A stretch of DNA of 64,000 nucleotides, from NCBI GenBank assembly GCA_963734965.1, contig CAVTJK010000004.1:1799241-1863240 (forward strand). The letters are read 5' to 3'. This DNA comes from an uncultured Microthrixaceae bacterium (lineage in GTDB: Bacteria > Actinomycetota > Acidimicrobiia > Acidimicrobiales > Acidimicrobilacustridaceae). Positions 6,240-61,032 of this stretch are shown here, piece by piece. The number at the start of each line of letters is the position of its first letter. The stretch's first letter is position 1. The notes beneath the pieces are model-generated. The model made no database searches and was not told where the DNA came from. It saw only the letters and a program-made list of their open reading frames with translations. Both the position numbers and the translations under genes were made by a program.

Positions 6240-6872
6240 TCAGCGCCGAATCGGGCGCACGATGACCTCGGAGCCGATGGCCTCGAAGTCGAGTCCGAGG
6301 AACATCCGCAACGATCGGGCGTTGCCCGGACTCACCGCGGCGAAGACCGGCTCCCCCGACGCCACGAGGGCGAGCGCGTCGCACACGAGCGATCGACCCC
6401 AGCCCCGACCCTGGCCGTCGGGCTCGGCCTCGACGCTGATCTCGCGACGGCCGGCCAGACCCCGGCTCAGGACGACCACCCCGCGATCGTCCCCGTAGGC
6501 GTCGATGTCGGTCCGAGCCAGGTATCGGGCGTGGACGACCCGTGGATGGTCGTCGTCGTCGAGCCGGGCCAGGTCGGATCCCTCACCGGTGCCGCGTCCG
6601 ACGAGGGTCGCGTCGAGGCAGCTGATCCAACCCGTCGGTCCCGCCAACCACCTCAGGAAGTCCGGGTGCTCGCAGCCGCCGAAGGCATCGCCGGACCGAG
6701 CGACCACCTGGTCGGGATCGGCGGCGGTGGCCACGATGGCGTGCCCGGTGAAGCCGACCACCGCCTCGATGCCCTCCGCGGGCGGCACCACCACCTCGAC
6801 CACCCCGTCGACCGCCGGAAAGCGACCCTCGGCGGCGCTGATGAAGGTGGCGAGCAGGGGGTGATTGGTCAG
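6240..6872 (-). CDS. GNAT family N-acetyltransferase; start uncertain
   Basis: The C-terminal part of ORF 6240..7082 carries acetyl-CoA motif A (EPDGQGRGWGRSLVCDAL) and motif B (AAVSPGNARSLRMFLGLDFEAIG). It is the last gene of the cta operon and abuts the ctaF stop. Confidence 0.7.
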   Translation of the reverse strand: MTNHPLLATFISAAEGRFPAVDGVVEVVVPPAEGIEAVVGFTGHAIVATAADPDQVVARSGDAFGGCEHPDFLRWLAGPTGWISCLDATLVGRGTGEGSDLARLDDDDHPRVVHARYLARTDIDAYGDDRGVVVLSRGLAGRREISVEAEPDGQGRGWGRSLVCDALALVASGEPVFAAVSPGNARSLRMFLGLDFEAIGSEVIVRPIRR

Positions 6873-7237
6873 GGGTGCGGGTGCCCGTGGTACCACAGGT
6901 TGAGGATGGTGAGCACGGCGATGTAGACGACCACGGCCAGGATCAGACCCGAGTAGAAGACGACCGTCAGCACCCGCTGGTCGAAGCGCAGGTGCATGAA
7001 GATGTAGGCGACGGTGAAGAACTTGACGGCCATCAACAGCAGCAGCACGAAGGTGACGGACTTGGTGCCGGCGAAGTCCCAACCCGGAAAGCTCGGCCAG
7101 AGGTAGGTCGCCACCTCGATGGCGGTGAGCACGGCGAGGAAGATCGCGGTCAGCACGTAGAGCTTCTCGCGCGGGTACTCCTCCTTGGCTCCGTCGAGTA
7201 CGGAGGTCGGGATCGGTTCGGCGGTCTCGGTGGCCAT
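6869..7237 (-). CDS. ctaF: Cytochrome c oxidase subunit IV (prokaryotic COX4_pro type)
   Basis: Intact 122-aa ORF with three TM helices. The motif AVKFFTVAYIFMHLRFD is typical of the COX4_pro family. It follows ctaE. Confidence 0.75.
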   Translation of the reverse strand: MATETAEPIPTSVLDGAKEEYPREKLYVLTAIFLAVLTAIEVATYLWPSFPGWDFAGTKSVTFVLLLLMAVKFFTVAYIFMHLRFDQRVLTVVFYSGLILAVVVYIAVLTILNLWYHGHPHP

Positions 7238-7247
7238 GTCCGCGCTC

Positions 7248-7820
7248 CTATGGGATCAGGTAGACGACGGCGAAGATGACGATCCACACGACGTCGACGA
7301 AGTGCCAGTACAGGCCGATGACCTCGACCGTCTCGGACCGGTGCTCGGGTATCTTGCCGCGCAACGAGAGGATCAGGAGCGAGACCAGCATGATGATGCC
7401 GATCGTGACGTGCACGCCGTGGAAGCCGGTGAGCGTGTAGAAGGCCGATGACGAACGGCTGGTCGTGAAGCCCATGCCCTCGTGCAGGAACACCGTGAAC
7501 TCATAGACCTGGCCGGCGACGAAGGTCGAGCCGAGCAGGGCCGTGGCGACGAGCCAGGTGCGCAGGCGGTGGTGATCGCCGCGCTCGATGGCCGACACGG
7601 CCAGCACCATGGTCAGCGAGCTCATCAGCAGCAGGAACGAGCTCACGGAGGTGAACCCGAGGTCGTACACCTGCTTGGGCGCCGGGCCCTGGCCGGCGAC
7701 GGGCACCTTGTACAGCAGATAGGTCGTGATGAGCCCCCCGAACAGCAGGCACTCGGACGCGAGGAACAACCACATCCCGAGCTTCGTGTTCGAGATCCCG
7801 GTGTTGGTGTCGTGCTCCAT
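7248..7820 (-). CDS. ctaE: Cytochrome c oxidase subunit III
   Basis: Read from the ATG at 7820 (MEHDTNTGISNTKLGMWLFLASECLLFGG). Also carries FYTLTGFHGVHVTIG and GLYWHFVDVVWIVIF. The upstream part of ORF 7248..7988 overlaps the ctaD end and is not coding. Confidence 0.9.
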   Translation of the reverse strand: MEHDTNTGISNTKLGMWLFLASECLLFGGLITTYLLYKVPVAGQGPAPKQVYDLGFTSVSSFLLLMSSLTMVLAVSAIERGDHHRLRTWLVATALLGSTFVAGQVYEFTVFLHEGMGFTTSRSSSAFYTLTGFHGVHVTIGIIMLVSLLILSLRGKIPEHRSETVEVIGLYWHFVDVVWIVIFAVVYLIP

Positions 7821-7863: not shown

Positions 7864-9897
7864 TCAGCCAACGGTCTCGACCTCCTTGGACTCGACCGAG
7901 TCGAGCTCGGCGGCGGCGTCGGATGTCTCGGCCTCGGCTTCGTCGGCGGTCCCCTCGTCGGGGCCGTGCTCGTCGCCATGACCACCACCAGGGGCGTCGG
8001 GGGGCTCGAGGGCCCACCCGAACACGGCCACCAGCAGCATCAGGCCACCGACGAGGCTCAGCCAGAGGGTGTAGAGCAGGCCGTAGGCGATCACCGGCAG
8101 CGAGAAGGCGGCGATGATCGGCCAGTACGACGGCGACGGCAGGTGGACGCCCTTGCCGTCGCTGTGCTGGGCCACCTCCTCGATGGTGTGGATGCGCACC
8201 AGCTTGTGGTCGGACGTCTCGGCGTACTTGCGGTACCAGAAGTCGTCGAGGCGGGTCACGACCGGGACCGGGTCGTAGTTCCACTCGGGCACCGGGCTCG
8301 GCGTCATCCACTCGATGGTGCGGGCATCCCACGGATCAGGCCCCGGCGGAGGCAGGGACTTGGCCTTCTGGCGGCTGTAGAAGATGTTGAAGATGAACAT
8401 GGCCACGCTGAAGGCCAGGGTGAAGGCCCCGATGGTGGCGATCTTGTTCCAGAGCTCGAAGCCGTAGCCCGCGTCGTAGGTGTAGATGCGGCGCGACATC
8501 CCCTGCAAGCCGAGCACGTGCATGGGCGCGAACGTCAGGTTGAAGCCCAGCAGCATGACCCAGAAGTTGGTCTTGCCCAACCGTTCGTTGAGCAGGTAGC
8601 CGAACACCTTGGGCCAGTAGAAGTAGAAGCCGCCCATGAAGCCGAGGAAGGCACCGCCGAACAGCACGTAGTGGAAGTGGGCGACGATGTAGTACGTGTC
8701 GTGCTGCTGGGTGTCCGACGGGGCGACGGCGTGGGTGACACCTGACAGGCCGCCGATCGTGAACATCGTCACCAGGCCGATCGAGTAGAGCATCGGCGTC
8801 GTGAAGTGCAACTTGCCGCCCCACATCGTGGCCGTCCAGTTGAGGATCTTCACGCCCGTCGGCACGGCGATGAACATCGTGGTCAACGAGAACGTCGTGA
8901 CCGAGATGGGCCCGATGCCGGACACGAACATGTGGTGGGCCCACACGCCCCAACCCATGAACCCGATGGCGATGCCGGACCAGACGATGAACTTGTAGCC
9001 GAAGATGGGCTTGCGCGAGAAGACCGGGAGCATCTCCGACACCAGGCCGAAGGCCGGCAGGATCATCAGGTAGACCTCGGGATGGCCGAACACCCAGAAG
9101 AGGTTCTCCCAAAGTAAGGGATTGCCGCCGCTGCGGACGTCGAAGAAGTTGGCGCCGAACAACCGGTCGAACATCAGCAGGAACTGCGCGCACGTGAGCA
9201 CAGGGATGGCGAACAGCAGCAGGAACTGGGTCACCAGCGTCATCCACGTGAACACCGGCATCTTGAACAGGTCCATGCCGGGACAGCGCATGTTGAGCAC
9301 GGTGACGATCAGGTTCACGGCACCGGTCAACGACGCCACACCGGTGATGATCAGGCCGAGGTTCCAGTAGTCGATGCCGTGGCCCGGCGAGAAGATGACC
9401 CCGGAGTTGGGCGCGTAGTTGAACCAGCCGCCGTCGGCCCCGCCGCCGAACAACCAGCTCGAGTTGAGGAACAGACCGCCGGCGAGGAACGACCAGAAGC
9501 TGAAGGCGTTGATCCGCGGGAAGGCCACGTCGCGCGCCCCGATCTGGAGCGGCATCAGGTAGTTGGCGAAGGCGGCACCGATGGGCATGACGACCAGGAA
9601 GACCATGGTCGTGCCGTGCATGGTGAAGACCTGGTTGTAGGTCTCGGCCGACAGCAGCTGGTTGCGGGGTGCCCACAGCTGCGAACGGATCAGCAGCGCC
9701 TCGCAGCCTCCGATGATGAAGAAGATCAGGGCCGCCGACCCGTACATGATGCCGATCTTCTTGTGGTCGACGGTGAACAACCACCGGCGCCACGACGCCT
9801 TGGGATGGGTCGGACGCGACAGCACCCCCAGCGGCTCGAACGGCGCGCCTGGGCCCCCAGCGGGCAGAGCGAGTGGCTGAGGGTCAGTGGTGGCCAT
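7864..9897 (-). CDS. ctaD: Cytochrome c oxidase subunit I with a C-terminal two-helix CtaF-like extension
   Basis: Intact 677-aa ORF with all canonical motifs: FTMHGTTMVF, WVFGHPEVYLMILPAFG, VWAHHMFVSG, VAHFHYVLFGG. About 110 extra C-terminal residues include HLPSPSYWPIIAAFSLPVIAYG..LLVAVFGWALE and an acidic tail. Confidence 0.95.
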   Translation of the reverse strand: MATTDPQPLALPAGGPGAPFEPLGVLSRPTHPKASWRRWLFTVDHKKIGIMYGSAALIFFIIGGCEALLIRSQLWAPRNQLLSAETYNQVFTMHGTTMVFLVVMPIGAAFANYLMPLQIGARDVAFPRINAFSFWSFLAGGLFLNSSWLFGGGADGGWFNYAPNSGVIFSPGHGIDYWNLGLIITGVASLTGAVNLIVTVLNMRCPGMDLFKMPVFTWMTLVTQFLLLFAIPVLTCAQFLLMFDRLFGANFFDVRSGGNPLLWENLFWVFGHPEVYLMILPAFGLVSEMLPVFSRKPIFGYKFIVWSGIAIGFMGWGVWAHHMFVSGIGPISVTTFSLTTMFIAVPTGVKILNWTATMWGGKLHFTTPMLYSIGLVTMFTIGGLSGVTHAVAPSDTQQHDTYYIVAHFHYVLFGGAFLGFMGGFYFYWPKVFGYLLNERLGKTNFWVMLLGFNLTFAPMHVLGLQGMSRRIYTYDAGYGFELWNKIATIGAFTLAFSVAMFIFNIFYSRQKAKSLPPPGPDPWDARTIEWMTPSPVPEWNYDPVPVVTRLDDFWYRKYAETSDHKLVRIHTIEEVAQHSDGKGVHLPSPSYWPIIAAFSLPVIAYGLLYTLWLSLVGGLMLLVAVFGWALEPPDAPGGGHGDEHGPDEGTADEAEAETSDAAAELDSVESKEVETVG

Positions 9898-9954: not shown

Positions 9955-11115
9955 TCACTTGAGCGTCTCGAAGTAGGCGACCAGCTCAGTGATCTGCAAC
10001 TCGCTGAGGTGGAGGTTGGGCATGCCGCGGTGCTGGAGGGCGGCCTCGGGCAGCACCAGCGGAGGGTTCCGGATCCAGGCCTGCAGGGCCGTCCGGTTGA
10101 AGATGAACGGACTCGGATCGCCGCCGTAGAGGGCGTTGCCCGGGTCGCCGGCCAGCGCCAGATCGTTCGGATCGCCCGGATGGCCCGGGTTGTTCGGGTC
10201 GTTGGGCGAGTAGAGGTTGAAGACGGAGCCGGCGAAGGTGCCGCGGGTGGCGATGTGGGTCAGGTCGGGAGCGACGCCACTGACGAGCTCCTTCTTGGCC
10301 GAACCCGACGCGATCTTGGCGTCGTTCACGCCGCGGATCAGGTGGCACGACGAGCACAGCTGGCCCTTGAAGACGGCCTCGCCGGCCTTGGCCGTCTCGT
10401 CGGTCGGCGTCACCGCCGGCTTCTGTTGGTTCTTGATCCAGGCGTCGAACTGCGTCTTGGTGACCACCCGCACGACCATCCGCATGTTGGCGTGGGACAG
10501 GCCGCAGAACTGCGTGCACTGGCCGCGGTAGACGCCCACCTTGTTGGCGTTGAACAGCAGCGGGTGGTGCTGGCCCGGCACGGCGTCCTTCTTGCCGTTC
10601 AGGGCCGGGATCCAGAACGAGTGGATGACGTCTTGCGAGGTGATCGTGAGCTCGACCGGCTGGTGGACCGGGATGATCATCTCGTTGGCGGTGATGATGT
10701 CGCCCTTGGCGGTGTCGGTGTACCGGCCGTCGTTGTTCATGTCGTAGTGGAAGGACCACCACCACTGCTGACCTGAGACCTCGACGTGCAGCGCGTTCTT
10801 GTCCGTCTGGTTCAGCTTGATGATCGTGGCGACCGTGAAGATCCCCACGACGACGAGGATCAGCAGGGGCACGATCGTCCAGCCGAGCTCGAGCACCGTG
10901 TTGCCCTCGAGCTGGCTCGGGAACTCGTCCTCGTCCTCGCCCGTGTCCCGGAAGCGCCAGACGATGTAGAAGATCACGGCGAAGAGCCCGATCATGACGA
11001 CCAGGGCCACCGCGTACACCGGCGTGATCAGGGTCTGGATCTGCTCGGACTGCACGCCGTGCGGGGTCAGCGAGGTCAGGGGCTTGCCGCCGTTGGCGAA
11101 CACGCCCGCGATCAT
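9955..11115 (-). CDS. ctaC: Cytochrome c oxidase subunit II fused to a cytochrome c domain (caa3 type); probable N-terminal extension to 11224
   Basis: Intact 386-aa ORF. It has a CuA site (CTQFCGLSHANM) and a C-terminal heme c site (CSSCH). An upstream ATG at 11224 in another frame encodes a signal-anchor-like peptide (see findings). Confidence 0.92.
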   Translation of the reverse strand: MIAGVFANGGKPLTSLTPHGVQSEQIQTLITPVYAVALVVMIGLFAVIFYIVWRFRDTGEDEDEFPSQLEGNTVLELGWTIVPLLILVVVGIFTVATIIKLNQTDKNALHVEVSGQQWWWSFHYDMNNDGRYTDTAKGDIITANEMIIPVHQPVELTITSQDVIHSFWIPALNGKKDAVPGQHHPLLFNANKVGVYRGQCTQFCGLSHANMRMVVRVVTKTQFDAWIKNQQKPAVTPTDETAKAGEAVFKGQLCSSCHLIRGVNDAKIASGSAKKELVSGVAPDLTHIATRGTFAGSVFNLYSPNDPNNPGHPGDPNDLALAGDPGNALYGGDPSPFIFNRTALQAWIRNPPLVLPEAALQHRGMPNLHLSELQITELVAYFETLK

Positions 11116-11223
11116 CGAGCGCGACGTAGAGGCCGCCGATGATGAGCACGACGAGACCCGCCAACAGCAGACCGACGCGGGCCTTGCCCCGACGGGGTGA
11201 CCCTCCGCTGGCCGGAGCGGCCA

Positions 11224-12120
11224 TCAGGACCTCGCCTCGCGTCGGGAGGGCGCGCCGCTGGCGACGCCCGGCTCACGGGACAGCTGGGGCATGGTCACCT
11301 TCCCGATCCCTCCGGCACCTGGTGGCCGGACGTGCGATCGTCCTTCTCGACTCGACGTGGTCCTCGGGCGGCGCCGACGAATCCCCCCGAAGATGATGGC
11401 CAACCCCAGCACGAACAGGATGAGCGTGATGGCCGAACGGCTGATCTTGGGACGCAGGGCGACAACGATGCAGCCGCCCAGGATCAGCACGCCGATGATG
11501 CCGAACACGGCGGTCGACGCGTGCTTGTTGGGCAGCGTGAGCAGCACCCTCGAGAAGCCGACGATGACGACGGCCACCAAGATGAAGGCGGTGATGGGCA
11601 GCCGCATGGGCTCGGCGATCTGACGGTAGAGCTCGAGGTTGATGCGGTCGTCGCCGGTGGCCCGCTCGGCCCAGGCCCGGATGGTCCACATCACGACCGA
11701 GGCTCCGAGCACGATGGCGGCGGCCAGGGCCAGCGGTCGACTCGAGATGGCCAGCCCGACCAGGATCGTGCCCACGCTGAAGGCGGTGATCACGGGCCAG
11801 TAGTTGGTGCCGCTCGGGGCTCGCGAGACGGGCACGGCGTCGAGCTCGATGGCCTCGGCCTGGGCGGTGGCGTCCGCATCGCGCAAGGCCGTGAACACGA
11901 CGCCCAGGGCGCCGGCGACGATGGCCACGCCGAGCACGAGGGTGTAGGCGAGGTGGTTGCCGACGCCGCCCTTCCACCCGATCGTGAGCGGGCCGATGAC
12001 CTGGTCGATGATCTGCTCGTGGTGGCTGGTCACCCCGACGAGGTAGGCACCGATCAGCGCGACGATGAAGAAGGCGCCGTAGAAGCGCATGGTGATGGTG
12101 ATGGTGCGGGACTTGAACAT
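11224..12120 (-). CDS. Polytopic membrane protein containing a CtaF-like (actinobacterial oxidase subunit IV-like) segment; function unknown
   Basis: Read from the ATG at 12120 (MFKSRTITITMRFYGAFFIV) in the frame of ORF 11224..12960, with about 8 hydrophobic helices. The segment SGTNYWPVITAFSVGTILVG..VVMWTIRAWAE resembles the CtaD tail. Its stop overlaps the ATG at 11224 (TGATG). The Arg-rich C-terminal 50 aa is doubtful. Confidence 0.6.
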   Translation of the reverse strand: MFKSRTITITMRFYGAFFIVALIGAYLVGVTSHHEQIIDQVIGPLTIGWKGGVGNHLAYTLVLGVAIVAGALGVVFTALRDADATAQAEAIELDAVPVSRAPSGTNYWPVITAFSVGTILVGLAISSRPLALAAAIVLGASVVMWTIRAWAERATGDDRINLELYRQIAEPMRLPITAFILVAVVIVGFSRVLLTLPNKHASTAVFGIIGVLILGGCIVVALRPKISRSAITLILFVLGLAIIFGGIRRRRPRTTSSREGRSHVRPPGAGGIGKVTMPQLSREPGVASGAPSRREARS

Positions 12121-12125
12121 GACGC

Positions 12126-12749
12126 CTACTTCGCCACGTAGATCGCGTACCAGATCAAGGCGTAGGCCGCGACGCTCGTGTGCCAATAGAGAGCCGCCGC
12201 GGTGATGCCGTCGTGCTGGCGGCTGGTGTACTGGCCGGCCAGCGCCCGGAACCCCATCAGCCCGACGAAGATCATGGCGACCACCGTCATGACCAGTTGG
12301 GCGCCGGTCACCGTGTAGATCAGCACCGACTGCTGGTTGGCGTGGATGTCGAGGCCCATCAGCGAGTACAGGTAGGCGGTCTGGTTGAGGAAGGCGAAGG
12401 CCAGCAGCAGGGACACGCCGATGGCCAGGTAGGTGTGGCGGCGATCGTCGTTCTTGATGGCCGAGACGGCCCACTGGATGGTGGCGGCCGACATGAGCAG
12501 CGTGGCGAACATCATGTTGGGCTGGGTCAGCGGGATGTGCACGCCCTGGGGGAGCCAGGTCCCGCCGTGCTGGCGACCCAGGCTGCGCTGGGTGAGGTAG
12601 ACGCCGACCAGGCCGAGGATCAGCATCATGCTGGCGGCGCTGGCGAAGGCGGTGCCCACGAGCAGGACGCGTGGTCGTGACAGCGGTGGCGGCGGGGCCT
12701 CCCCGATGGCCAGGGGCTCGTGTTCGTCGACCGCGACGATCGCCGCCAT
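12126..12749 (-). CDS. Divergent cytochrome oxidase subunit III-like membrane protein
   Basis: Read from the ATG at 12749 (MAAIVAVDEHE) within ORF 12126..12854. Its helices align with CtaE (IYTVTGAQLVMTVV versus FYTLTGFHGVHVTIG; AALYWHTSVAAYALIW versus GLYWHFVDVVWIVIF). The start overlaps the upstream stop (TGATG). Confidence 0.7.
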   Translation of the reverse strand: MAAIVAVDEHEPLAIGEAPPPPLSRPRVLLVGTAFASAASMMLILGLVGVYLTQRSLGRQHGGTWLPQGVHIPLTQPNMMFATLLMSAATIQWAVSAIKNDDRRHTYLAIGVSLLLAFAFLNQTAYLYSLMGLDIHANQQSVLIYTVTGAQLVMTVVAMIFVGLMGFRALAGQYTSRQHDGITAAALYWHTSVAAYALIWYAIYVAK

Positions 12750-14365
12750 CAGGGTGCCTCCTGTGCTTCGGCCCGATCGAGGAGCGGCTCGGCCGAGACC
12801 ATCCGTTCGAGAACCCCGAAGTTGGCCGCCTCCGGCGGGCTGGTCGTGGCCCATTCGAGGGATTGGCCGACGCCCCAGGCGTCGTCGGGCGCGTCGCCGT
12901 GGCCCATGAACAGCGAGATGACCACCAACGCGATGGCCACGACCAGCAGGGCGGCCCCAAGGGCGGACGTGCCGTAGAGGAAGTGCATCGAGTCAGCCAG
13001 GCCCGACGCCTTGAACTTGAAGCCGTAGACGAACAGCGGCAGGCCGACGACGAGCGCCCCGACCGTCCCCACCAGCGCCGCCAACTTGGCCACGCCGTCG
13101 TGGGCGAAGCGACCGAAGAGCTTGGGGGCCCAGTAGACGATCCCGCCCAGCCCGGCGAGGGTCGCCACGGCCACGATCAACAACAGGTGGCCGTTGGCGT
13201 AGGGCGAGCCGAACCCCTGCTGTCCCCACCGGATGTCGTGCAGGTCGAGTTGCTTGATGGTGTAGATGCCGCCGGCCAGGACGGCGAGGAACAGCACCAG
13301 GGCCGAGCCGAGCACGAACAGCATCGGGCTCTTGAGCATCGACGAGCCGGAGCGACCCGAGCGCGCCGTCGCCATCCACCCGCCGAGCAGGACCACCGTC
13401 GGGAGGATGATCAGCACCGACAGGGCGATGAACAGGGCCTCGTTGTACACGTCCGGGTAGAAGGCGGGCTGGGCGAAGGCCCCGAAGGTGAGGATGCCGA
13501 AGGCGCCGATGGCGGCCATGAGGGTGCTGCGGTGCTTCTGGCGGACCCCCGACAGGGTGGCGACCACGTCATTGGCCAAGCCGAGGGCGGGGATGGCCAA
13601 CGCGTAGATCTGCGGCTGGGCGAACACCCAGGACACCTGGGTCCACTGGTTGGTCCCGGTCGCGAAGAACGACGGCTTCCCGTAGTGGTGGTCGACGTAG
13701 ATGAGCACGATGTTGGCCAGCAGCACGGGGAGGGTCAGCACCCAGATCGAGGCGGCCACCACCACCGACCACGAGAACATCGGGATCCGATCGAGCCACA
13801 GGCCGGCCGTGCGCAACGAGATGATCGTGGTCAGCAGGCAGATGCAGGCGACGATCAGGCCCGCCGCGACCAGCGCCAGTCCGGCGTAGGTCAGGTCGAC
13901 GGCCTTGACGCGCCCGCCCAGGGGCCCGCCGTCGATGACGTAGGAGGCGACGACGATGAGCGAGCCGATCAGCCAGCCCCAGAAGCCGGCGGCCGCGGCG
14001 CGCGGGAACGCGACGGTGTTGGCGCCGATCTGAAGGGGCGTGATGAAGGTGGCGAGGCCGACGAAGAGCGGGATGGCGAAGAGCAGCACCGCCGCGATCT
14101 GGCTGGCCGTGTAGACCTGGAAGACGTGGGCCGTGGGCAGCAGGTGATGGGCCTGGTGGGCGGCGTAGAGGGTGTCGAGCACCCAGGCCGCCGCTCCGAA
14201 GAACAGGGCGAACCCGATGTAGGCCCGGCCCAGGGAGCGATGATCACCCGTACCGATGAAGCCGGCCAGGCCCGTCTGGGAGTGCTCGGGCAGCCCGATG
14301 AATCGCTCGGGCTCGGTCTCGTCGGCGGCGGGTTCGGTGGTGGGTCTGGTCTCGGTGATCGCCAT
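12749..14365 (-). CDS. Heme-copper oxidase subunit I-like protein lacking most canonical metal-ligand histidines
   Basis: Intact 538-aa ORF with about 12 TM helices, collinear with CtaD (TPLQIGANTVAFPR, IPMFSWSVVV, YWAPKLFG). The ligand motifs are changed: FQVYT, WVFAQPQIY, FAQPAF and YANGHLL replace FTMHG, WVFGHPEVY, WAHHMF and VAHFHYV. Confidence 0.8.
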   Translation of the reverse strand: MAITETRPTTEPAADETEPERFIGLPEHSQTGLAGFIGTGDHRSLGRAYIGFALFFGAAAWVLDTLYAAHQAHHLLPTAHVFQVYTASQIAAVLLFAIPLFVGLATFITPLQIGANTVAFPRAAAAGFWGWLIGSLIVVASYVIDGGPLGGRVKAVDLTYAGLALVAAGLIVACICLLTTIISLRTAGLWLDRIPMFSWSVVVAASIWVLTLPVLLANIVLIYVDHHYGKPSFFATGTNQWTQVSWVFAQPQIYALAIPALGLANDVVATLSGVRQKHRSTLMAAIGAFGILTFGAFAQPAFYPDVYNEALFIALSVLIILPTVVLLGGWMATARSGRSGSSMLKSPMLFVLGSALVLFLAVLAGGIYTIKQLDLHDIRWGQQGFGSPYANGHLLLIVAVATLAGLGGIVYWAPKLFGRFAHDGVAKLAALVGTVGALVVGLPLFVYGFKFKASGLADSMHFLYGTSALGAALLVVAIALVVISLFMGHGDAPDDAWGVGQSLEWATTSPPEAANFGVLERMVSAEPLLDRAEAQEAP

Positions 14366-14476
14366 GTCAGTGCAGGGATGACCTCGTCGTCACCGCGACC
14401 TGCGAACGCACACCCAACGCCGGGACAGGCGAGGCGGCGTCCAGGTTCGCGGGGCCGGAGCAGGGAACGAACAGGG

Positions 14477-14482
14477 ACTCTA
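14477..14482 (-). promoter_or_regulatory. Candidate -10 box TAGAGT for the oxidase-like/ctaCDEF transcript
   Basis: The minus strand reads gggtgtgTAGAGTccc in the 199-nt gap between ctaB and the subunit I-like gene, about 110 nt upstream of the ATG at 14365. The -35 is weak. Confidence 0.3.
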
Positions 14483-14564
14483 CACACCCCATGCAGGTGG
14501 GCCGAAAACCCGTGCCGACCGGTGATCGACGGGGGTCGGTGGGGCGGCTCGGGCAGGTCATGGC

Positions 14565-15463
14565 TCAGATCCCGTGGCGAACGAGCACGTCGACGACCAT
14601 GGCCCCGAACAGCAGCGTCACGTAGGTGATCGAGTAGGTGAACAGGCGCATGGCCTGCTTGGGCGACTCGGTGCGCAGCACCTGGACGGCCAGGTAGGTG
14701 AAGACCCCTCCGAGGACGATGGCGCTGCCGAGGTAGATCACGCCGAGGTGGCCCACCGCGTCGAACAACAGGGTCAGCGCCCACAGCAGCAGCGTGTAGA
14801 TGAGGATCCGCACGGCCGTCGTGTGGAAGCTGGCCACCGCCGGCAGCATGGGCACGTCGGCGGCGGCGTAGTCGTCCTTGTAGCGGATGGCGAGGGCCCA
14901 GAAGTGCGGCGGGGTCCAGTAGAAGATGACGGCGAAGAGCACGACGGGCGCCCACGCCAGGTGGCCGGTGACGGCGGTCCAACCGATGAGCACCGGCACG
15001 GCCCCGGCGGCGCCACCGATCACGATGTTGCTGCTCGAGGTCCGCTTGAGCCACAGCGTGTACACGAACACGTAGAAGAGGCAGGCCGACGACCGCCAAC
15101 ACGGCGCTGATGAGGTTCACGAACGCGCCACAGCCACACGAAGGCCACCACTTCGAGGACCACGGCGAAGATCAAGGCGTGGCTCGGCTCGATCAGACCC
15201 GTCACGAGCGGACGGTTCTGCGTCCGCTTCATCACCGCGTCGATGTCGCGATCGACGTACATGTTGATGGCGTTGGCGCCGCCGGCGGCGAGCGTGCCGC
15301 CGACGACGGTCGCGACCATCAGCCAGATCGGGGGCACGCCCCGCTCGGCGACGACCATGGTGGGCACCGTCGTGACCAGGAGGAGCTCGATGATGCGGGG
15401 CTTGGTCAGAGCCACGTACCCAGCCGCGCGGGTGCGCATGGAGGGACGCATCGTGGAGGCCAT
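14565..15463 (-). CDS. ctaB: Protoheme IX farnesyltransferase (heme O synthase); two frame breaks near 15075 and 15115
   Basis: The ATG at 15463 opens [51 protein letters not shown] (ORF 15020..15628). [13 protein letters not shown] is in a second frame. [42 protein letters not shown] is in ORF 14565..15071. Confidence 0.9.
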
Positions 15464-15472
15464 CAGCCGCCG

Positions 15473-15478
15473 ATCGTA
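15473..15478 (-). promoter_or_regulatory. Candidate -10 box TACGAT, 9 nt upstream of the ctaB ATG (leaderless-type)
   Basis: The minus strand reads gtgccTACGATcggcggctgATG. Confidence 0.3.
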
Positions 15479-15525
15479 GGCACGGGTCGGGCGGCTGGGA
15501 CAATCGCCCTCACAGGGTCTCCACA

Positions 15526-15531
15526 TACAAT
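15526..15531 (+). promoter_or_regulatory. Candidate -10 box TACAAT, 7 nt upstream of the GTG at 15539 (leaderless-type)
   Basis: The plus strand reads ccacaTACAATcccgcggGTG. No Shine-Dalgarno sequence is present. Confidence 0.35.
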
Positions 15532-15538
15532 CCCGCGG

Positions 15539-16432
15539 GTGCGCATCGGCGTCGTGATCCTGCCCACGATGGACTGGCCCGACGCCCGGTCGCTCTGGCG
15601 GCGAGCCGAGGCAGCTCGGCGCGCACACCGCCTGGACCTATGACCATCTGACCTGGCGGGATCTGAAGGACGGGCCGTGGCTCGGGGCCGTGCCCTTGCT
15701 GGCCGCCGTCGCCGCGACCACCGAGACCATGAGGATCGGGACGCTCGTCACCTCGCCCAACTTCCGCCACCCCGTGACGCTGGCCAAGGAGGTGATGACC
15801 CTCGACGTGATCTCGGGCGGACGCCTGACGTTGGGGATCGGCGCCGGGGGCGTCGGCTGGGACGCCACCGCCCTGGGTCAGGCGCCCTGGTCCCGATCTG
15901 AGCGGACCCGACGCTTCGAGGAGTTCGTCGCCGCGCTCGACCACCTGCTCGACCCAGGCGACCACCGCCGAGCTCGACGGTGAGTTGTACGACGCCATCG
16001 ATGCCCGCTGCGTCCCTGGCTGCACGCAGCGGCCGCGCGTGCCGTTCGCCGTCGCCGGGGGAGGCCGACGGGCCATCGCGCTGGCCGCTCGCTTCGCCGA
16101 GATCTGGGTGACCATGGGCGATCCCCAACACGCCGGCGACCTCGACGCCAGCGGGTGCATCGAGGTCGTTCGGCGCCAGAGCGATGCCCTCGACGAGGCG
16201 TGCGCGGCGGATCGGCCGCGACCCCGCGACGCTCGATCGGCTCTACATGCAGGGCGCGACCCGCGAGCCGTGGCTCGAATCGGTCGGTGCCTTCGAGGAC
16301 CTGGCCGGGCGCTACTCCGGGCTCGGCTTCACCGACCTGGCGCTGCACTGGCCGCGCGCCGAGCCGCCCTATGTCGCCGACGTCGACGTCTTCGAGGCCA
16401 TCCTGGCCGGCGCCGTCAGCGGCTCCGGCTGA
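15539..16432 (+). CDS. LLM-class F420-dependent oxidoreductase (second paralogue); frame-disrupted
   Basis: [24 protein letters not shown] comes first. Then [52 protein letters not shown] is in ORF 15690..15983. [27 protein letters not shown] is in ORF 15985... The C-terminus [24 protein letters not shown] is in ORF 16184..16432. Confidence 0.8.
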
Positions 16433-19400
16433 GCCGGCGCCGCCAGGCCAGCAACCAGGCTCCCCCGCTGATGAGCGCGGCTGCCACCAGCAGCAAGATG
16501 ACGATGTCGGCACCCGTCAGCGGCAGCGTGCCTTCGCCCTGGGTCGCGGTGCTCGGGCCCACGGCGACACCCGTCGTGGAGGGAGGCGCGGTCGGCGCGG
16601 CGGTCGTCGGCGGGGTCGTCGGGGGCGGGACGACGGCGGCGTCGGTCGACACAGCTCCCCGAGTTGTGGGCGTCGCAGTTGTACGAACCCCACTCGGGGT
16701 CGGCGGTCCCGGTCGTGTGCCACACGAGCAGATCGCCGTCCCGGCGCTGCTGGGCGACCTCGAGGTGGCCGTCGCCGTCCCAGTCCCCCACCGCCGGCGT
16801 GCCGATGCGTCCACCCACCGGTGAGCTTGGGCCAGCCCGCCGGCGAACGTCCCGGTCGCGTCGAAGGCGTCGAGGGTGTACAGGCCGTTGCCGGCGATCA
16901 CCTCGTTGTGACCGTCGCCGTCGAGGTCGGCGATGGCCGGCGCCACGAACAGGGCCAGGTCGGCCGTCGTCTGCGGCGACCCCGGCAGCTCGTTGCCGGT
17001 GGCGCCGTCCCAGGTCGAGAGCTGGTCGTCGTTGGGCAGCTGGAGGTCGGGCGCGAGCAGGTCGATGAAGCGGGTCAGCCCGGCGGTGTTGGCCGCGATC
17101 TCCTTGGTGCCACCGCCCTGGAGCTCGCCGATCGTCGGACCCGAGAGCCCGATGAGCGAGGCCACGATGTCGTTCGAGTTGCGATCGGCGCCGAAGCGGC
17201 CGCGTTCTGCAGCGCGAGCCCGCCCGCCCACGCCACGGGGATGTCGCCCGCCGGCGGTCGTCGCCGTAGACGCTGTGACCGTGCGCGTCGAGCACGTAGA
17301 GGGTTCCGGCCGACGAGGCGGCCACGATCTCGGGGCCCGGGTGGGTGGGGTCGACATCGCCGACCGACCGCGGGCATGGCCACGCCGTCACCGATCGTCG
17401 GCAGCAACGACGGTGGCCAGCTGGCTGAGCTTGGCCGGCCAGCCCGGGAGGTAGGCCTGGGCGTCGGGGTTGGCCGACGACGTTGGGGTTGCGGGCATCG
17501 GTGCCCTCAGGCGAGATCACGTACAGCCGCGAGTTGCCGGGCGTGCCGGCCGCGCCGAGCAGGCCGAGCACGTCGGCGCCGTCGCCGATGTTCGGGCGGC
17601 TCGACGTACTGCTCCTGCGCCCCCGACGACGATCTCGGGTCGGCCGTCGCCGTTGACGTCGGCCACCGTCGGCGTGGCGATGAGCTCACCGCCTTCCCGC
17701 ACCCCCGAACCCGGCGCGAAGGTCACCTCGTTGCTGACCGGATCGACCGGCGACACCTTGGTCGGGTCGACGAGCAGCACGGGGAAGCCGGCCACCGGCG
17801 AGCCGTCGGCGTGCCAGGCGTAGACGTGGCGGTCCATGGCGCGCGGCCACGATCTCGAGCGTGCCGTCGCCGTCGAGGTCGCCGAGCGACGGCGAGCTGG
17901 CGAACGCAGGCTTGGTCCGGTTGAACTCGTTCTGGTCGCTCGGGTTGTCGCGCGAGTACGCCGGGTTCACCGCCATGGTCGCCAGCCGTTGCGCCGGTGG
18001 CCGACCACACGTACGACCTTGCCGTCGAGGTCGGTGTCGACGATCTCGAGGTGGCCGTCGTGGTCGAGGTCGCCGACGGCGGGCGCACCCACTCCGAAGG
18101 CGCCGCGGTGGACGGGGATGTGATCGGCCTGCGCGGTCGGCGAGCTCGGCGTTCCACCAGGGCGACACGTCAGCCAGGAGGGGGAAGCCCGGGCAGCTCG
18201 CTCATGTCGGAGCGGTAGGCGTGGATCTCGCCGTCGGCCGTCGCCAGCAGCAGCTCCTGGTGACCGTCGCCGAGGAGGTCGACGAAGCGCGGGCTCGACG
18301 TGCTGACCCCGGCGATCTTCATCGGCGAGCCCGGCGACGAGATCGGGGTCGTCGTGGACGAACACCTGCTTCTGCATCTCGCCCGTCTGATCCGTCGTCC
18401 GTCGCCGCCGTGCGGCGGTGACGACGACGCGGATGCGCACCGAGAACTTCTCCTCGTCGGGGCGGTTCTGGTTCGTCGGGTCGACGGGGGCGCCGTGGCC
18501 CGTCGATCGGGCAGGCGAGGCCGCGATCGAGGCCAGGTCGAGGGTGGCCAGCGTCCCCGACGCCGGGCGCGGTCAAGCCCGGTGCCCGAGCCGGCCACGG
18601 TCCAGTGGTCGGTCGCCGGGTAGAGCGGCGGCTGCGAGGCCGGGCGCCCACTCGACCCGGTAGTCGTAGGAGTCGAGCCCGCGGCGCGGCCACGCGCCCG
18701 GTGACGGCGGCCGTGCCCGTGGTGGGCAGCACGTCGAACCAGGCCGGCGCGTCGATCATGGCCTCGGGCGGGATGCGCCCGTCGCGCACGCGCCTTGAGC
18801 ATCTCGTACGCGTTGACCCGGCCGTAGCCGAACGTGCGCGTCCCAGCCCGTCGTGGTCGGGTAGCGCACGGTGTCGAGGATCGGGTTGCCGTTCGGCGTG
18901 CCGAAGTTGTTGGCCGGGTCGACGGCGTTGGGGGTCGAGAAGTCGATGTCGTCGGCGGTCGAGCGCGCACGATCTGCATGGCCTCGTCGGCCGAGAGCAC
19001 GTTGTCGCCGGGCTGCCACGACGTCAGAGCCGGGTTCGGCGCGATGCCGAGCTGGCGGGCGTAGCTCTCGATCAGCCCGACCATGCCCGCCGACTCGCCC
19101 GTCGCCTCGGACGAGCAACTGCTCGACGGGACGCTCACGAAGGTGTGGCCGCCGAAGTTGGTGCAGCCGTTGAGCGCCAGGTAGCCCGTCGATCGTGCCT
19201 CCGCCGAGCGGGTTGCTGGTCAAGGTCGTCACCGAGTTCACGTCCATCGTGTGCTCGAGCGACGCCGGCAGGTTCGGGTGCTTCGACGCCTCGTCGGCCA
19301 TCGACGCCACGACGACCACGCCGCGGTGGTAGGCGGCGTCGATGGCCTCCTGGGCCTGGCGAGGGTCGTTGAGCGCGCCGAGCGCCTCCTGGATGACGTC

Positions 19401-20259
19401 GGCACCCGAGTCGAGGCCGAACAGCACGCCGGCCGCGAAGCGACCGCCGTCGGCGATGAACGAGTCGCCGACCCGCACCGGGATGAACAGGCAGCTCGGA
19501 CAGGTCCCCACGATCCCGGTGCCGTTGGCGGCCGCGCGTCGAGTCCTTGGCCTCGCCGGTGCCGTGGCCGTAGTCGACGGTGTCGAGCGGGTCGTTGTCG
19601 CCGTAGAGGAAGTCCCAGCCGGAGATGTCGTCGACGTAGCCGTCGTGGTCGTCGTCGGTGCCGTTCGAATAGGTCGGGTTGAGGATGAGGTCCTCGGGGT
19701 CGGCCACGCCGTTGCCGTTGAGGTCGGGGATGGGCGCCGAAGTCGGTGATGTTGAACACGCCGTCGTGGTTGCAGTCACCGTCGGCGACCGCCGGCCAGC
19801 AGGGCGGCTTGCGCCTCGCCGAGGTTGATGTAGGCCTTGGTGGCCAGGTCGGCCATCGAGCCGGGATCGCGCCAGCCGATGCCCGAGTCGAGGATGGCGA
19901 TGCGCACCGACGGGGCTGCCCTCGCGACAACCCCCAGGCCAGGTCGACGGCCGCGCCCTTCTGGCCGCACTGGTTCTGCGGTGAGTCGACCAGCGCCGGA
20001 CTGGGATCGCGCAGCGAGGTGCGCTTGTAGTCGTTGCGGTCGAACTCGGCCGGCAGCGAGGCCGGCTCGTCGGCCGGGCCGTAGCGCCAGTTGGTGCAGT
20101 CGAGCGGCGTCGGCCGGGACCCGCGCGGGCGGCCGACGACACCGGTCGGGCGAGCGGGGGCTGGATGCGGAACCCGCTCGCGGACCAGCACCCGCCGGTG
20201 AGCGCGACCACCACGAAGAGCGCCGTCACGAAGCCGTTCACGACGCTGGGCCAATCCAT
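16416..20259 (-). CDS. Large secreted S8 (subtilisin-like) serine peptidase with multiple FG-GAP/VCBS-type repeats, a Pro/Thr linker and a C-terminal LPXTG sortase anchor; heavily frame-disrupted
   Basis: The N-terminal signal-like peptide is MDWPSVVNGFVTALFVVVALTGG (ATG at 20259). The catalytic triad contexts are VRIAILDSGI (Asp), DTVDYGHGTGEA (His) and SSCSSEATGESAGMVGLIESY (Ser). Repeats include LGDLDGDGTLEIV, VADVNGDGRPEIVVG, VGDLDHDGHLEIV, IADLDGDGHNEVIAG and VGDWDGDGHLEVA. The C-terminus is [55 protein letters not shown]. The fragments are spread over at least 10 listed ORFs. Confidence 0.8.
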
Positions 20260-20371
20260 TCCCCCGAGCTCGACGGCGCGGCTGGCCGCGCGCCGACGGG
20301 GCCGACGCTACTGCCTGGCGTCGGAGGGAGGCGATTGGGTCGGCGTCGACGTCCGCCCGTACCCTCGCGCC

Positions 20372-21320
20372 GTGCGCCTCCCCCGCCTCTCGGCCGCGCA
20401 GTACCGCCGCATCACCCTGGTCGTGGTGCTGGCGGTGTGCGCCATCATCGTCACCGGAGCCGCGGTGCGCCTGACCGACTCGGGCCTCGGCTGCTCGGAC
20501 TGGCCGAACTGCACGCGCAACCACTTCGTGGCCAAGGCCTCAGTTCCACCCGCAGGTCGAGTTCACTCAACCGCGATCTTCACCGGCGCTCGTCTCGGTG
20601 GCGGTGATCATCGCCGTGCTCGGCTCGGTCGCCCGCCGGTCCGCGCCGGCGCGACCTGATCTGGTGGTCGCTCGGCTCGTGGCCGGTCTGGTCGGCGACG
20701 ATCGTGCTCGGCGGCATCGTGGTGCTGTCCCACCTGTGGCCCCCCTTCGTGATGGCCCACTTCCTGCTGTCGTGCGCTCATCGTCTGGAACGCCGTCGTG
20801 CTCCACGATCGGGCCGGCCACTCCGACACGCCCGGGGTCGCTGACCGTGTCGCCGGGCCAGCGCAACCTGGCCCGCGTCCATGGTCGGCGGCGGCCGGCG
20901 CCGTGCTGGTCACCGGCACGATCGTGACCGGCACCGGACCCCACGGCGGCGATCAGCACGTCAAGCGGCTGCCGTTCCTCGTCGAGGACGTGGCCCGCAT
21001 CCACAGCCTCACCGCCTGGGCGCTTCCTCGCCCTGACCGTCGTCGTCGCTGGTGGTGCTGGCACCGCACCGGCGCCAGCCGCGGTGACCGAGCGCCGCGG
21101 CTCGGAGCTGATCGCCCTGATCGTGGCCCAGGGCGCGCTCGGTTACACCCAGTACTTCCTCGGCGTCCCGCCGGCGCTGGTGCTGCTGCACGTCACCGGG
21201 GCAGTGGCGGTGTGGGTGACGCGCTGCGCTTCTACCTCGGCCTGTTCGCCCACCCCGAGGCCGAGCCCGCTCGAGTCGAGCGCGAGCCCGTGGGCCGGTC
21301 CCGCGGTCGAGCCGGACGTG
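20372..21320 (+). CDS. ctaA: Heme A synthase (COX15/CtaA); frame-disrupted, 3' end not resolvable
   Basis: The GTG at 20372 opens [47 protein letters not shown]. Later fragments are [37 protein letters not shown] and [34 protein letters not shown]. No in-frame stop defines the end. Confidence 0.8.
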
Positions 21321-21371
21321 AACGCAACGAGGGGATACGACACGGTCCCGCCGATGGGCGACAATGGTCTG

Positions 21372-21678
21372 ATGCAGGCGGCCGCGCCGATGCCGAGTCC
21401 CGTCGAGGTCGACGAGCCCATCCGACGACACCGACCTCGACCTCGATCGTCCGTGGGTCGTGCATCGTGTGGAACGACCCCATCAACCTCATGGACTACG
21501 TCACCTTCGTCTTCCAGAAGCTCTTCGGCTACAGCCTCGAGAAGGCGCAGCAGCCTGATGCTCGACGTCCACGAGAAGGGTCGGGCCAGCGTGTCGACCG
21601 GCGTCGCGCGAGAAGGCCGAGTTCGACGTGTTCCGCCTCCACGAGCATGGCCTGTGGGCCACCATGCAGCAGGACTGA
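21372..21678 (+). CDS. clpS: ATP-dependent Clp protease adaptor ClpS; frame-disrupted at least 3 times
   Basis: The core [30 protein letters not shown] is followed by [13 protein letters not shown] (second frame) and [22 protein letters not shown] with a stop at 21676..21678 (third frame). Confidence 0.85.
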
Positions 21679-21684
21679 GCGCCC

Positions 21685-22172
21685 ATGCCTCGAGGGTTCA
21701 GCTTGGCCGGGCGCATGGGCTGGCTGCCGCTGGTCGAGACGGTGCCCGGTGGCTACCGGGTCAACCTCGGTCGGGCCGAGCAACGCGTCGTCATGGAGTG
21801 CCTCGACGAGCTGCGCGTGATGCTGGCCAACCAGGATCCGGCCACTCGCCGGCTGTTCCCGACGGCGTACGTGACCGACCCCGAGCTCGACGCCGAGTAC
21901 CAGCAGCTGGTCGGCGACGACCTGCTGACCGGTCAGCTCGAAGCCCTCGACATCGTGGAGCGCACGATCGACGGCCAGATCGTCGACCGCGGCGAGCTCG
22001 AGGCGTGGATGCGGGCGGTCAACGGGGTCCGCCTCGCTCTCGGCACCCGCTCGACGTGGGCGAGGAGGAAGCGGTCGAGATCGACCCCGACGATCCCAAC
22101 GCCCACCTGATGTTCGTCTATCAGGTGCTGACCGTCATCCTCGGCGCCGTCGTCCAGGCCCTGACCGGCTAG
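21685..22172 (+). CDS. DUF2017-family protein (conserved clpS neighbour in Actinobacteria); one frame break near 22050
   Basis: ORF 21685..22110 (..[44 protein letters not shown]) continues in the frame of ORF 21084..22172 ([38 protein letters not shown]). Confidence 0.7.
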
Positions 22173-24462: not shown

Positions 24463-24538
24463 GCCCCCATCGTCCAGTGGCCCAGGACGCCGCCCTTTCA
24501 AGGCGGTAACACGGGTTCGAATCCCGTTGGGGGTGCCA
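24463..24538 (+). tRNA. tRNA-Glu (anticodon TTC), CCA encoded
   Basis: A 76-nt cloverleaf was folded by hand: acceptor GCCCCCA/TGGGGGT (G1:U72), anticodon arm CCGCC-CTTTCAA-GGCGG, T arm ACGGG-TTCGAAT-CCCGT. Confidence 0.85.
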
Positions 24539-24822
24539 CACCGTCTCGGCGGATCACCCGGATGATGGAGGCGGCGGAGCCCCGGCCGGCGACCTGATGA
24601 GGAGTTCGCTCGACTGGTGGAGGACATCGCTCGGTCTCTATCGTCTGGCGCCGATGACGCCTTGACCACGTTTGGGCGGGACCACTGCCCGTGCGGGTGG
24701 CCGCCACGGCCGGGAGATACTTGGCGTCGGACGGGCGGGCTCGTGTAGCGTGCCCTCCGCCCCTGGGCTCCGCTCGCCTCGAGAGGCCGGCTCGGGGGTG
24801 CATGACCTCGAGCACGTTGCGA

Positions 24823-24900
24823 GGTCCCGTGGTGCAGTTTGGAGTGCACGCCGGCCTGTCAAGCCGGAGGTCGCGGGTTCAAATCCCGTCGGGACCGCCA
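24823..24900 (+). tRNA. tRNA-Asp (anticodon GTC), CCA encoded
   Basis: Acceptor GGTCCCG/CGGGACC, anticodon arm CCGGC-CTGTCAA-GCCGG, T arm GCGGG-TTCAAAT-CCCGT. Confidence 0.88.
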
Positions 24901-24952
24901 CCCGCGCCGCTGGCCGGCCGGGTCCAGACGGCTGGCCGCGGGCCGGCCGCCC

Positions 24953-25028
24953 GGTCGGGTAGCTCAGTTGGCAGAGCGTCCGCCTGAAAAGCGGAAGGTC
25001 ACCGGATCGACGCCGGTCCCGACCACCA
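24953..25028 (+). tRNA. tRNA-Phe (anticodon GAA), CCA encoded
   Basis: Acceptor GGTCGGG/CCCGACC, D arm GCTC-AGTTGGCA-GAGC, anticodon arm TCCGC-CTGAAAA-GCGGA, T arm ACCGG-ATCGACG-CCGGT. The T-loop is atypical. Confidence 0.85.
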
Positions 25029-51849: not shown

Positions 51850-51945
51850 ATGACCAAGCTGAGATATCCACCTCCCCATGACTGGCTGTCGCTGCCGGCC
51901 ATCCGAGACACCGACTGGGTCGAAGCCCAGTTCGGCCACAGCTAG
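51850..51945 (+). CDS. Possible 31-aa small ORF immediately upstream of egtA (MTKLRYPPPHDWLSLPAIRDTDWVEAQFGHS)
   Basis: The ATG at 51850 follows GGAAGGAG (51826..51833). The TAG stop lies 2 nt before the egtA GTG. There is no homology evidence. Confidence 0.2.
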   Translation: MTKLRYPPPHDWLSLPAIRDTDWVEAQFGHS

Positions 51946-51947
51946 CC

Positions 51948-54598: not shown

Positions 54599-54601
54599 GC
54601 C

Positions 54602-59183: not shown

Positions 59184-61032
<1,849 letters not shown>

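Follow-up and report, generated by a model that had tools for sequence, protein, structure and literature searches.

The window analyzed here, 64,000 nucleotides (nt) of contig CAVTJK010000004.1 from an uncultured Microthrixaceae bacterium (GCA_963734965.1), carries a caa3-type cytochrome c oxidase operon in which three additional membrane protein genes stand between the heme O synthase gene ctaB and the subunit II gene ctaC. In the direction of transcription, on the minus strand throughout, the order is ctaB, a 199-nt spacer, the three additional genes, a ~70-nt spacer, ctaC, ctaD, ctaE, and a COX4_pro subunit IV gene. We refer to the additional genes as X1 (12749..14365; subunit I-like, 538 amino acids with 12 transmembrane helices), X3 (12126..12749; subunit III-like, 207 amino acids, of the 5-helix actinobacterial CtaE type), and X4 (11295..12120; a third protein with seven transmembrane helices, of which helices 1 to 4 resemble CtaF, the Cyt_c_ox_IV family, and three more follow). 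An earlier reading made without database searches (the sequence-only reading) had proposed three open reading frames (ORFs) for divergent, ligand-less oxidase-like subunits at this locus, and the ORFs lie where it put them, on the minus strand. Judged from their sequences, the three additional genes encode ancient paralogues of actinobacterial aa3 subunits I, III, and IV that have no cofactors, and they form a tightly coupled three-cistron unit; we are highly confident that they constitute a real, conserved, and apparently undescribed pseudo-enzyme module in the caa3 operon of Acidimicrobiia.

The relationship of X1 to subunit I is clear from both sequence and predicted fold. X1 passes the Pfam COX1 model (PF00115; 151 bits against a gathering score of 34.8, E value of 5e-44), aligns end to end with the CtaD of the window at 25% identity, and also aligns with solved CtaD, QoxB, CyoB, and COX1 chains. 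AlphaFold2 (AF2) models were computed with database proteins as input, and that of X1 has a predicted local distance difference test score (pLDDT) of 84 and a predicted template modeling score (pTM) of 0.86. Its top Foldseek matches are the CtaD proteins of Corynebacterium and Mycobacterium (TM score of ~0.78), with CtaD, COX1, and CyoB chains ranging from 0.75 to 0.79.

The metal-binding apparatus of subunit I is missing from this fold. We inspected the columns of the canonical ligands of the low-spin heme (H61, H378), the high-spin heme (H376), and CuB (H240, H290, H291) in an alignment of 116 X1 relatives with bovine COX1 and the window CtaD, and again in a more careful alignment of 316 members. 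In the window X1, Ser replaces H61, Gln replaces both H240 and H290, and Pro replaces H291, with a single His left in helix X that is not conserved in the family. Across the 116 relatives, the columns are occupied by Gly or Ser at H61, Gln at H240, an invariant Gln at H290, Pro at H291, Gly at H376, and Phe or Leu at H378. The three CuB His residues occur together in 0 of the 316 members, and 221 of the 316 have none of the six His ligands. Every motif pair that the sequence-only reading had set out in calling X1 ligand-less is present, and neither alignment restores a full His set. The loss extends to the residues of the D and K channels (D91 to Thr, E242 to Gln, K319 to Leu) and to the heme-propionate Arg pair, with R438 gone. 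The Tyr244 column retains Tyr or Phe, and the His-Tyr cross-link is nonetheless impossible in X1 because the partner residue H240 is Gln.

Classified against the heme-copper families, X1 shows no defining feature of an active oxidase or nitric oxide (NO) reductase. The six His, the channel residues, the Arg pair, and the His-Tyr cofactor of A-family oxygen reductases are absent, and the same ligand columns lack the heme axial His and the three His, with or without Glu, that hold FeB in NO reductases. Scores against the corresponding NCBIfam models fall far below their cutoffs (194.5 versus 670.75 for TIGR02891, CtaD_CoxA; 189.9 versus 880 for NF050116, cyt_aa3_Actin). The public record labels X1 a "cbb3-type cytochrome c oxidase subunit I." Conservation in the protein peaks in the C-terminal tail, where 12 positions between 495 and 530 are invariant; AF2 leaves this tail unplaced in the monomer (pLDDT of ~40).

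X3 is likewise recognizable and likewise divergent, as the sequence-only reading had it, and the replacement of TGFHGVHV by TGAQLVMT that it pointed out is present. The protein passes Pfam COX3 (PF00510; 48.1 bits against a cutoff of 23.8, E value of 1.8e-12), matches COX3 and CtaE chains in the PDB with E values down to 1.6e-12, and aligns over its full length to NF050119 (aa3_CtaE_Actin) at 44 bits, under the cutoff of 190. Family-wide replacements affect E90 (to Ser, Thr, or Ile), H207 (to Met), E236 (to Thr or Ser), and D246 (to Val), all of which the neighboring CtaE retains. At H204, the other member of the H204/H207 pair, the window X3 has Gln, a minority state in a family in which most proteins have His. 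Both by these residues and by its NCBIfam score, X3 falls outside functional subunit III as represented by the CtaE, CyoC, and QoxC equivalogs.

X4, labeled a "hypothetical protein" in the public record, has no Pfam or NCBIfam match and no significant Foldseek match when searched alone (AF2 model pLDDT of 79). A profile of 47 X4 relatives, compared by hhalign with a profile of the Acidimicrobiia CtaD tail, gives a probability of 95.7% and an E value of 1e-8 over X4 residues 105 to 148, which correspond to helices 3 and 4, contain a ..S.WWP.. motif, and include the stretch SGTNYWPVITAFSVG... This bears out the likeness to the CtaD C terminus that the sequence-only reading had noticed, and also its suggestion of CtaF, since the CtaD tail itself matches the Pfam family Cyt_c_ox_IV (PF12270) and the relationship of X4 to CtaF is thus a transitive one. 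Direct signals are weak: the X4 profile against Mycobacterium tuberculosis CtaF has an E value of 1.1, Cyt_c_ox_IV is matched by 2 of 24 X4 relatives (best, 7.8e-4) and not by the window X4, and CtaF chains appear at Foldseek ranks 4 and 5 with probabilities of ~0.4 and E values of ~1.4. We therefore describe X4, at the level of sequence profiles, as a predicted CtaF-like four-helix unit with three further helices. Its loops are strongly conserved; by the positive-inside rule the second and fourth would be cytoplasmic, as would the X1 tail if X1 has the topology of a canonical subunit I. Two other identities for X4 were considered and rejected. A degenerate subunit II does not fit, in that the window X4 has no extramembrane domain and the domain found in relatives is Cupredoxin_1 (35 bits), not COX2; Caa3_CtaG, which likewise has seven transmembrane helices, gives no match. 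None of X1, X3, and X4 matches the Pfam or NCBIfam models of the assembly factors Caa3_CtaG, Surf1, Sco, and Cox11.

The module is widespread and its surroundings are fixed. A word-based search returned 347 X1 relatives below 1e-10, and an exhaustive profile search over 50%-identity representatives returned 699 below 1e-30, the best 150 all above 280 bits. Among 179 species-level genomes that encode an X1 relative, 80 loci were kept for synteny, with only loci long enough being counted for a given feature. Nearly all of the 80 are labeled Acidimicrobiia, Acidimicrobiales, or Actinomycetota, and the few Bifidobacterium or Acidobacteria labels, on metagenome-assembled genomes, are taken to be mislabels. 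The order ctaB-X1-X3-X4-ctaC-ctaD-ctaE-subunit IV, on one strand, is found in every locus long enough to show it; divergent X1 members have the same order, the three named ones being labeled Acidimicrobiales or Actinomycetota. Seen from the oxidase side, on metagenome contigs anchored on the CtaD tail and restricted to loci with enough upstream DNA, every locus has the X genes 5' of ctaC (X4, 37 of 37; X3, 33 of 33; X1, 27 of 27), and a caa3 cluster devoid of X genes was never seen in these loci.

The X genes are also maintained as coding sequences. They are full length in most genome loci (X1 in 73 of 80, X3 in 76 of 78, X4 in 69 of 75), and their GC content at third codon positions (GC3; 0.95 to 0.96, X1 0.95) is the same as that of the oxidase genes. 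Ratios of nonsynonymous to synonymous substitution rates (dN/dS), taken from close genome pairs only as the all-pairs estimate is saturated, are 0.15 for X1, 0.24 for X3, and 0.16 for X4, next to 0.09 for ctaD, 0.07 for ctaE, 0.12 for ctaC, and 0.24 for subunit IV. Full-length orthologues, low dN/dS, coding GC3, and fixed gene order lead us to exclude decay. The proposal of the sequence-only reading that the genes form a functional module rather than decaying duplicates is thereby upheld: synteny is fixed in the informative loci, selection is purifying, composition is that of coding DNA, ligand loss is family wide, and the orthologues are neither sporadic nor full of stops.

The junctions within the module are tight, and those at its borders are looser. 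The X1 stop and the X3 start overlap in TGATG at 12749, and X3 and X4 are separated by 5 nt (12121..12125; family median of 6 nt), both as the sequence-only reading had described. Its third junction, a TGATG overlap of X4 with ctaC at 11224, does not hold for the window genome. Close X4 homologues are 274 amino acids long and end in ..GAARGPR..GSGR*, and relative to all of them the window X4 has one extra base near 11383; its true stop is at 11297..11295, and the public annotation (P0121), which runs to 11224 and 298 amino acids, includes a tail (11385..11224) with GC contents of 0.69, 0.76, and 0.74 at the three codon positions, a noncoding composition, against a GC3 of 0.96 in the X4 body. 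With this 1-nt frameshift taken into account, the TGATG at 11224 is the ctaC start, preceded by a spacer of ~70 nt (11225..11294). X1 and X3 are uninterrupted, as had been stated of all three genes, and X4 is not. Direct coupling into ctaC is found instead in some relatives: X4 and ctaC overlap in TGATG in L006 and lie 3 nt apart in L004. The junction spans 62 to 75 nt in L001, L003, L017, and L005, and 70 to 160 nt in many lineages. Spacers flanking the module exceed the internal gaps, that between ctaB and X1 having a median of ~180 nt (63 loci).

The X4 frameshift is probably an assembly error private to the window genome. Comparable breaks affect ctaB, which is split over two frames by an indel near 15071..15120 (Pfam UbiA positions 1 to 87 fall in the ORF 15020..15628 and positions 103 to 244 in the ORF 14565..15071), and ctaC, in which an indel near 11116..11125 parts the N-terminal anchor helix from the rest of the protein (N terminus compared with L001, L002, L003, and L017). 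That frameshifts also hit these and other essential genes reflects the quality of what appears to be an indel-prone (long-read) assembly. Further frame breaks in the window lie in ctaA (20165-21820) and in a dnaK-like fragment (59338-60051).

The spacer between ctaB and X1 (14366..14564) contains two blocks that are invariant in an alignment of 8 genomes, the remainder being variable. The first, GGGTTTTC..GGTGTGTAGAGTC (window 14476-14511, with GGTGTGTAGAGTC at 14490..14476), includes within GGTGTGTAGAGTC a TAGAGT (~14484..14479) similar to the -10 elements of actinobacteria. A 30-nt leader (14394..14366) that abuts the X1 ATG forms the second; it also reads as a mini-ORF of 8 codons, GTG..TGA, whose end lies 1 nt ahead of that ATG. 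These blocks may represent a putative promoter and a translational leader. A sigma-70 scan found no promoter, and a terminator scan gave weak, mostly intragenic matches; the terminator match at 14490..14474 is better explained, given the 8-genome alignment, by the conserved DNA motif.

Pfam and NCBIfam searches of the window identify the remaining genes of the cluster as those of a canonical caa3 oxidase. Upstream of the module, ctaB (14565..15463, minus strand) encodes a UbiA-family heme O synthase. Downstream of it, ctaC (9955..11224, ATG at 11224) encodes a subunit II that combines a CuA domain with a cytochrome c domain fused to it (TIGR02866, 1e-61; Pfam COX2, COX2_TM, and Cytochrom_C). 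The 677-residue subunit I encoded by ctaD (7864..9897) keeps all six His ligands, scores 688 bits against TIGR02891, over the cutoff, and matches Pfam COX1 at 1.6e-155. It has a C-terminal two-helix extension that equals helices 13 and 14 of QoxB (the alignment with Bacillus QoxB reaches residue 623) and is also homologous to CtaF, matching Cyt_c_ox_IV at 1.2e-6 (29.1 bits against a cutoff of 26.9). After this extension comes an acidic, His-rich tail (..GGGHGDEHGPDEG..; C terminus at window 7864-8200) that is kept across the class. The cluster continues with ctaE (7248..7820; COX3 2.3e-21, with matches to the NCBIfam CyoC, QoxC, and CtaE models) and a small subunit IV of Bacillus type (6869..7237; COX4_pro 1.7e-8). 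The Pfam search shows no Caa3_CtaG gene in the window's part of the cluster, and a composition-based gene list shows no qcr genes in the window. A stretch of ~4.5 kb between ctaB and ctaA (15629-20160) codes for a surface protein that has FG-GAP repeats and an LPXTG anchor and is frameshifted; since ctaA and ctaB are immediate, divergent neighbors in L005 and L011, this interval looks like an insertion. Elsewhere, an Rfam scan of the window yields only three tRNAs, clustered at 24463-25025, and three consecutive plus-strand genes at 51882-55372, taken from the composition-based gene list and judged by eye, have ends like those of EgtB, EgtC, and EgtD of ergothioneine biosynthesis.

The sequence-only reading had called the X genes a shadow set in front of the canonical caa3 genes, and in the sense of a recent duplication of the neighboring ctaD and ctaE this does not stand. 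In addition to the low identity between X1 and the adjacent CtaD, the C-terminal motif of X1, DDAWGVGQSLEWATTSPP..NF, belongs to the type seen in mycobacterial CtaD and in QoxB, whereas the window CtaD has PDPWDARTIEWMTPSP at this position. In a neighbor-joining tree of 484 aligned columns and 100 bootstraps, a crude method prone to long-branch attraction, the X1 family is monophyletic (100%) and groups with M. smegmatis CtaD (80%), apart from the Acidimicrobiia CtaD clade (100%). Identity, motif, and tree all speak against X1 as a recent duplicate of ctaD.

Relatives of X1 and X4 preserve what may be intermediate stages of cofactor loss, more of the ligands being retained in basal X1 members. 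Both low-spin heme ligands, H61 and H378, are kept in 25 of the 316 X1 members, including the Acidimicrobiales species representatives L045, L050, L054, L056, L061, L076, and L080, with CuB gone; in these lineages X1 may still be a cytochrome. A COX1-like protein, P0351 (L081:1143-2735), retains H61, H290, H376, and H378, with Arg at H240 and H291; its gene adjoins an Rrf2-type regulator and has a UbiA-like gene after it. In the neighbor-joining tree P0351 branches at the base of the X1 family, and it may be an intermediate form. The X4 homologue of L083 (L083:4242-5225) has a C-terminal Cupredoxin_1 domain with a complete type-1 copper motif (H..C-x2-H-x2-M), and another, P0209, has the same domain with the Cys lost; in L083 a TlpA-like thioredoxin-fold gene stands between X4 and ctaC. 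Since relatives keep bis-His ligands or a type-1 copper domain, the ancestral role was probably a redox one. The pattern suggests a redox-active aa3-type set that lost the binuclear center first and then, in most lineages, that of the window among them, the low-spin heme and the copper domain. In the simplest history, the X genes would have stayed in place and under selection throughout that loss.

What the module does in its present form must be read from homology, fold, selection, and synteny, which lead us to propose, tentatively and with a confidence somewhat short of an even chance, that it is a stoichiometric, noncatalytic structural partner of the caa3 oxidase. X1, X3, and X4 would assemble as CtaD, CtaE, and CtaF do, with 12, 5, and 7 helices but devoid of hemes, of CuB and CuA, and of proton channels. 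A core of this kind, having neither cofactors nor proton channels, could not reduce O2 or pump protons, and this "pseudo-oxidase" half would stabilize the caa3 enzyme, dimerize it, or dock it in a larger respiratory assembly. A structural role appears the most likely because the set has no subunit II of its own and is always directly upstream of ctaC-ctaD-ctaE-subunit IV. We infer both that the three proteins form one complex and that this complex binds the caa3 oxidase; the invariant C-terminal tail of X1 and the conserved X4 loops fit a stable complex, and the tail is a possible interface. Several observations weigh against this proposal. The X genes evolve faster than ctaD and ctaE, the promoter-like block ahead of X1 and the spacer ahead of ctaC permit separate expression (which also fits an assembly factor), and relatives with bis-His ligands or an X4 copper domain make a residual role of another kind possible. 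We also know of no case in which a whole inactive oxidase core serves as a subunit. A more specific version of the proposal would have the module as a fossil actinobacterial aa3 core whose catalytic center was lost at the root of Acidimicrobiia and which was kept as an obligatory scaffold, forming a catalytic/noncatalytic heterodimer with a Bacillus-like caa3 oxidase and docking that oxidase to the actinobacterial bcc complex; the module would then be a whole pseudo-enzyme "complex IV" within a respiratory supercomplex. We regard this version as speculative and unlikely in its full detail. Actinobacterial oxidases are described as working in supercomplexes whose parts stabilize each other (PMC9145763).

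The main rival to a structural partner is an assembly role, in which X1 would be an empty scaffold that acts with X3 and X4 transiently while the oxidase is built and is absent from the mature enzyme. The module could receive heme O or heme A from CtaB or CtaA, or could hold CtaC or CtaD before cofactor insertion. The siting of the X genes, with the heme A genes (ctaA, ctaB) on one side and the structural genes on the other, speaks for such a role, as do the TlpA-like gene in the L083 cluster (taken as a CuA-assembly type from the family match alone) and the lack of a Caa3_CtaG match in the window's part of the cluster, and the spacers with their promoter-like block would allow nonstoichiometric expression. 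Against it, three large membrane proteins (~1020 amino acids) with the codon bias of the oxidase genes would be a costly chaperone, the X1 pockets have neither an axial ligand nor the propionate-binding Arg pair, so that heme handling is not obviously favored, and nothing of the X type is among the known assembly factors in a review (PMC9145763). On balance we consider it somewhat unlikely, though it deserves to be taken seriously, and two further functions appear less likely than this one.

One of these takes the module to be an autonomous complex whose function is new and lies outside redox chemistry (it might, for example, conduct ions or protons, transport, or sense); co-regulation with aerobic respiration would then be all that ties it to the cta genes. 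The strong conservation of Gln at H240, E242, and H290, with Q299 invariant, suggests a selected polar cavity rather than random filling, and the module has its own conserved upstream element. Yet both canonical proton pathways have given way to apolar residues, X1, X3, and X4 match no transporter or channel family in Pfam or NCBIfam, and a strict two-way linkage with one oxidase type across a class exceeds usual co-regulation, making this improbable. The other is a residual redox protein, in which the window X1 would bind heme or metal through non-His ligands and relay electrons. The 25 relatives with H61 and H378 and the complete copper motif of the L083 X4 homologue lend it some color, but the clade of the window has Ser or Gly in place of H61 and Leu or Phe in place of H378, the lone helix X His is unconserved, the Arg pair has gone, and X4 lacks a cupredoxin domain; we think it very improbable for this genome. 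Decaying duplicates, pseudogenes, or an annotation or assembly artifact would account for the several frameshifts in the window, one of them in the X4 tail. That explanation is hardly credible when the frameshifts strike ctaB, ctaC, and other essential genes too and thus track assembly quality, and when the X genes are full length in most loci, with dN/dS well below 1, a GC3 of 0.95, and a confident AF2 model.

Should the X proteins belong to the caa3 enzyme, as the structural-partner reading proposes, they would be, to our knowledge, the first complete inactive oxidase core used as a structural element, with a bearing on how respiratory supercomplexes are built and evolve. The relatives form a natural series, some with both hemes retained, some with the low-spin heme alone, and some with neither, and are useful for asking how the subunit I fold stays together when cofactors are absent. 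There is also a practical consequence for Acidimicrobiia, which are abundant in freshwater, marine, soil, and activated-sludge communities: public records list X1 as a cbb3-type subunit I, so that metabolic reconstructions of these organisms may overcount oxidases. No description of an X1/X3/X4 family was found in the literature searched, in agreement with the statement of the sequence-only reading that no characterized system of this kind was known. At least one study classifying heme-copper oxidases dropped sequences lacking the six His (PMC3084760), and through such a filter a large, class-wide X1 family may have been overlooked.

Among known systems, the NO reductase families resemble X1 in being COX1 superfamily members that do not reduce O2 and that were found by sequence surveys. 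The cNOR, qNOR, eNOR, bNOR, sNOR, gNOR, and nNOR types retain a high-spin heme together with an FeB- or CuB-type site and are catalytic (PMC11214002); by that description they differ from X1, an A-family-like protein without any metal ligand. Among known systems, the actinobacterial aa3 core CtaD/CtaE/CtaF of the Mycobacterium and Corynebacterium CIII2CIV2 supercomplexes (PDB 6adq, 6hwh, 7q21, 8hcr) comes closest. The X set and this core consist of the same subunits, with 12 helices in subunit I, 5 in subunit III, and a subunit IV of the CtaF type; X1 has its best sequence and fold matches there and shares the C-terminal motif D.WG.G..LEWAT.S.PP..NF, and X3 aligns over its full length with CtaE chains. 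The X set differs in that it lacks ligands for heme a, heme a3, and CuB, has no proton channels, and comes without its own subunit II; further differences are the three extra helices of X4 and the NCBIfam scores of X1 and X3, far under the cutoffs. The mycobacterial ctaD, ctaE, and ctaF genes are scattered, whereas X1, X3, and X4 are contiguous here. In layout, the cluster follows the Bacillus-type caa3 operon (ctaA / ctaB-ctaCDEF-ctaG), with ctaA divergent from ctaB, followed by ctaC, to which a cytochrome c domain is fused, and by ctaD, ctaE, and COX4_pro, and departs from it in the three extra genes between ctaB and ctaC and in the ctaG gene not seen in the cluster. For the mode of action that we propose, the nearest parallels are CydB of cytochrome bd and ActF of alternative complex III, duplicated membrane subunits without redox cofactors that are kept as structural halves. 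These are single subunits of one enzyme, whereas the X module would extend the same principle to a whole three-subunit core, associated, as we infer, with an active oxidase.

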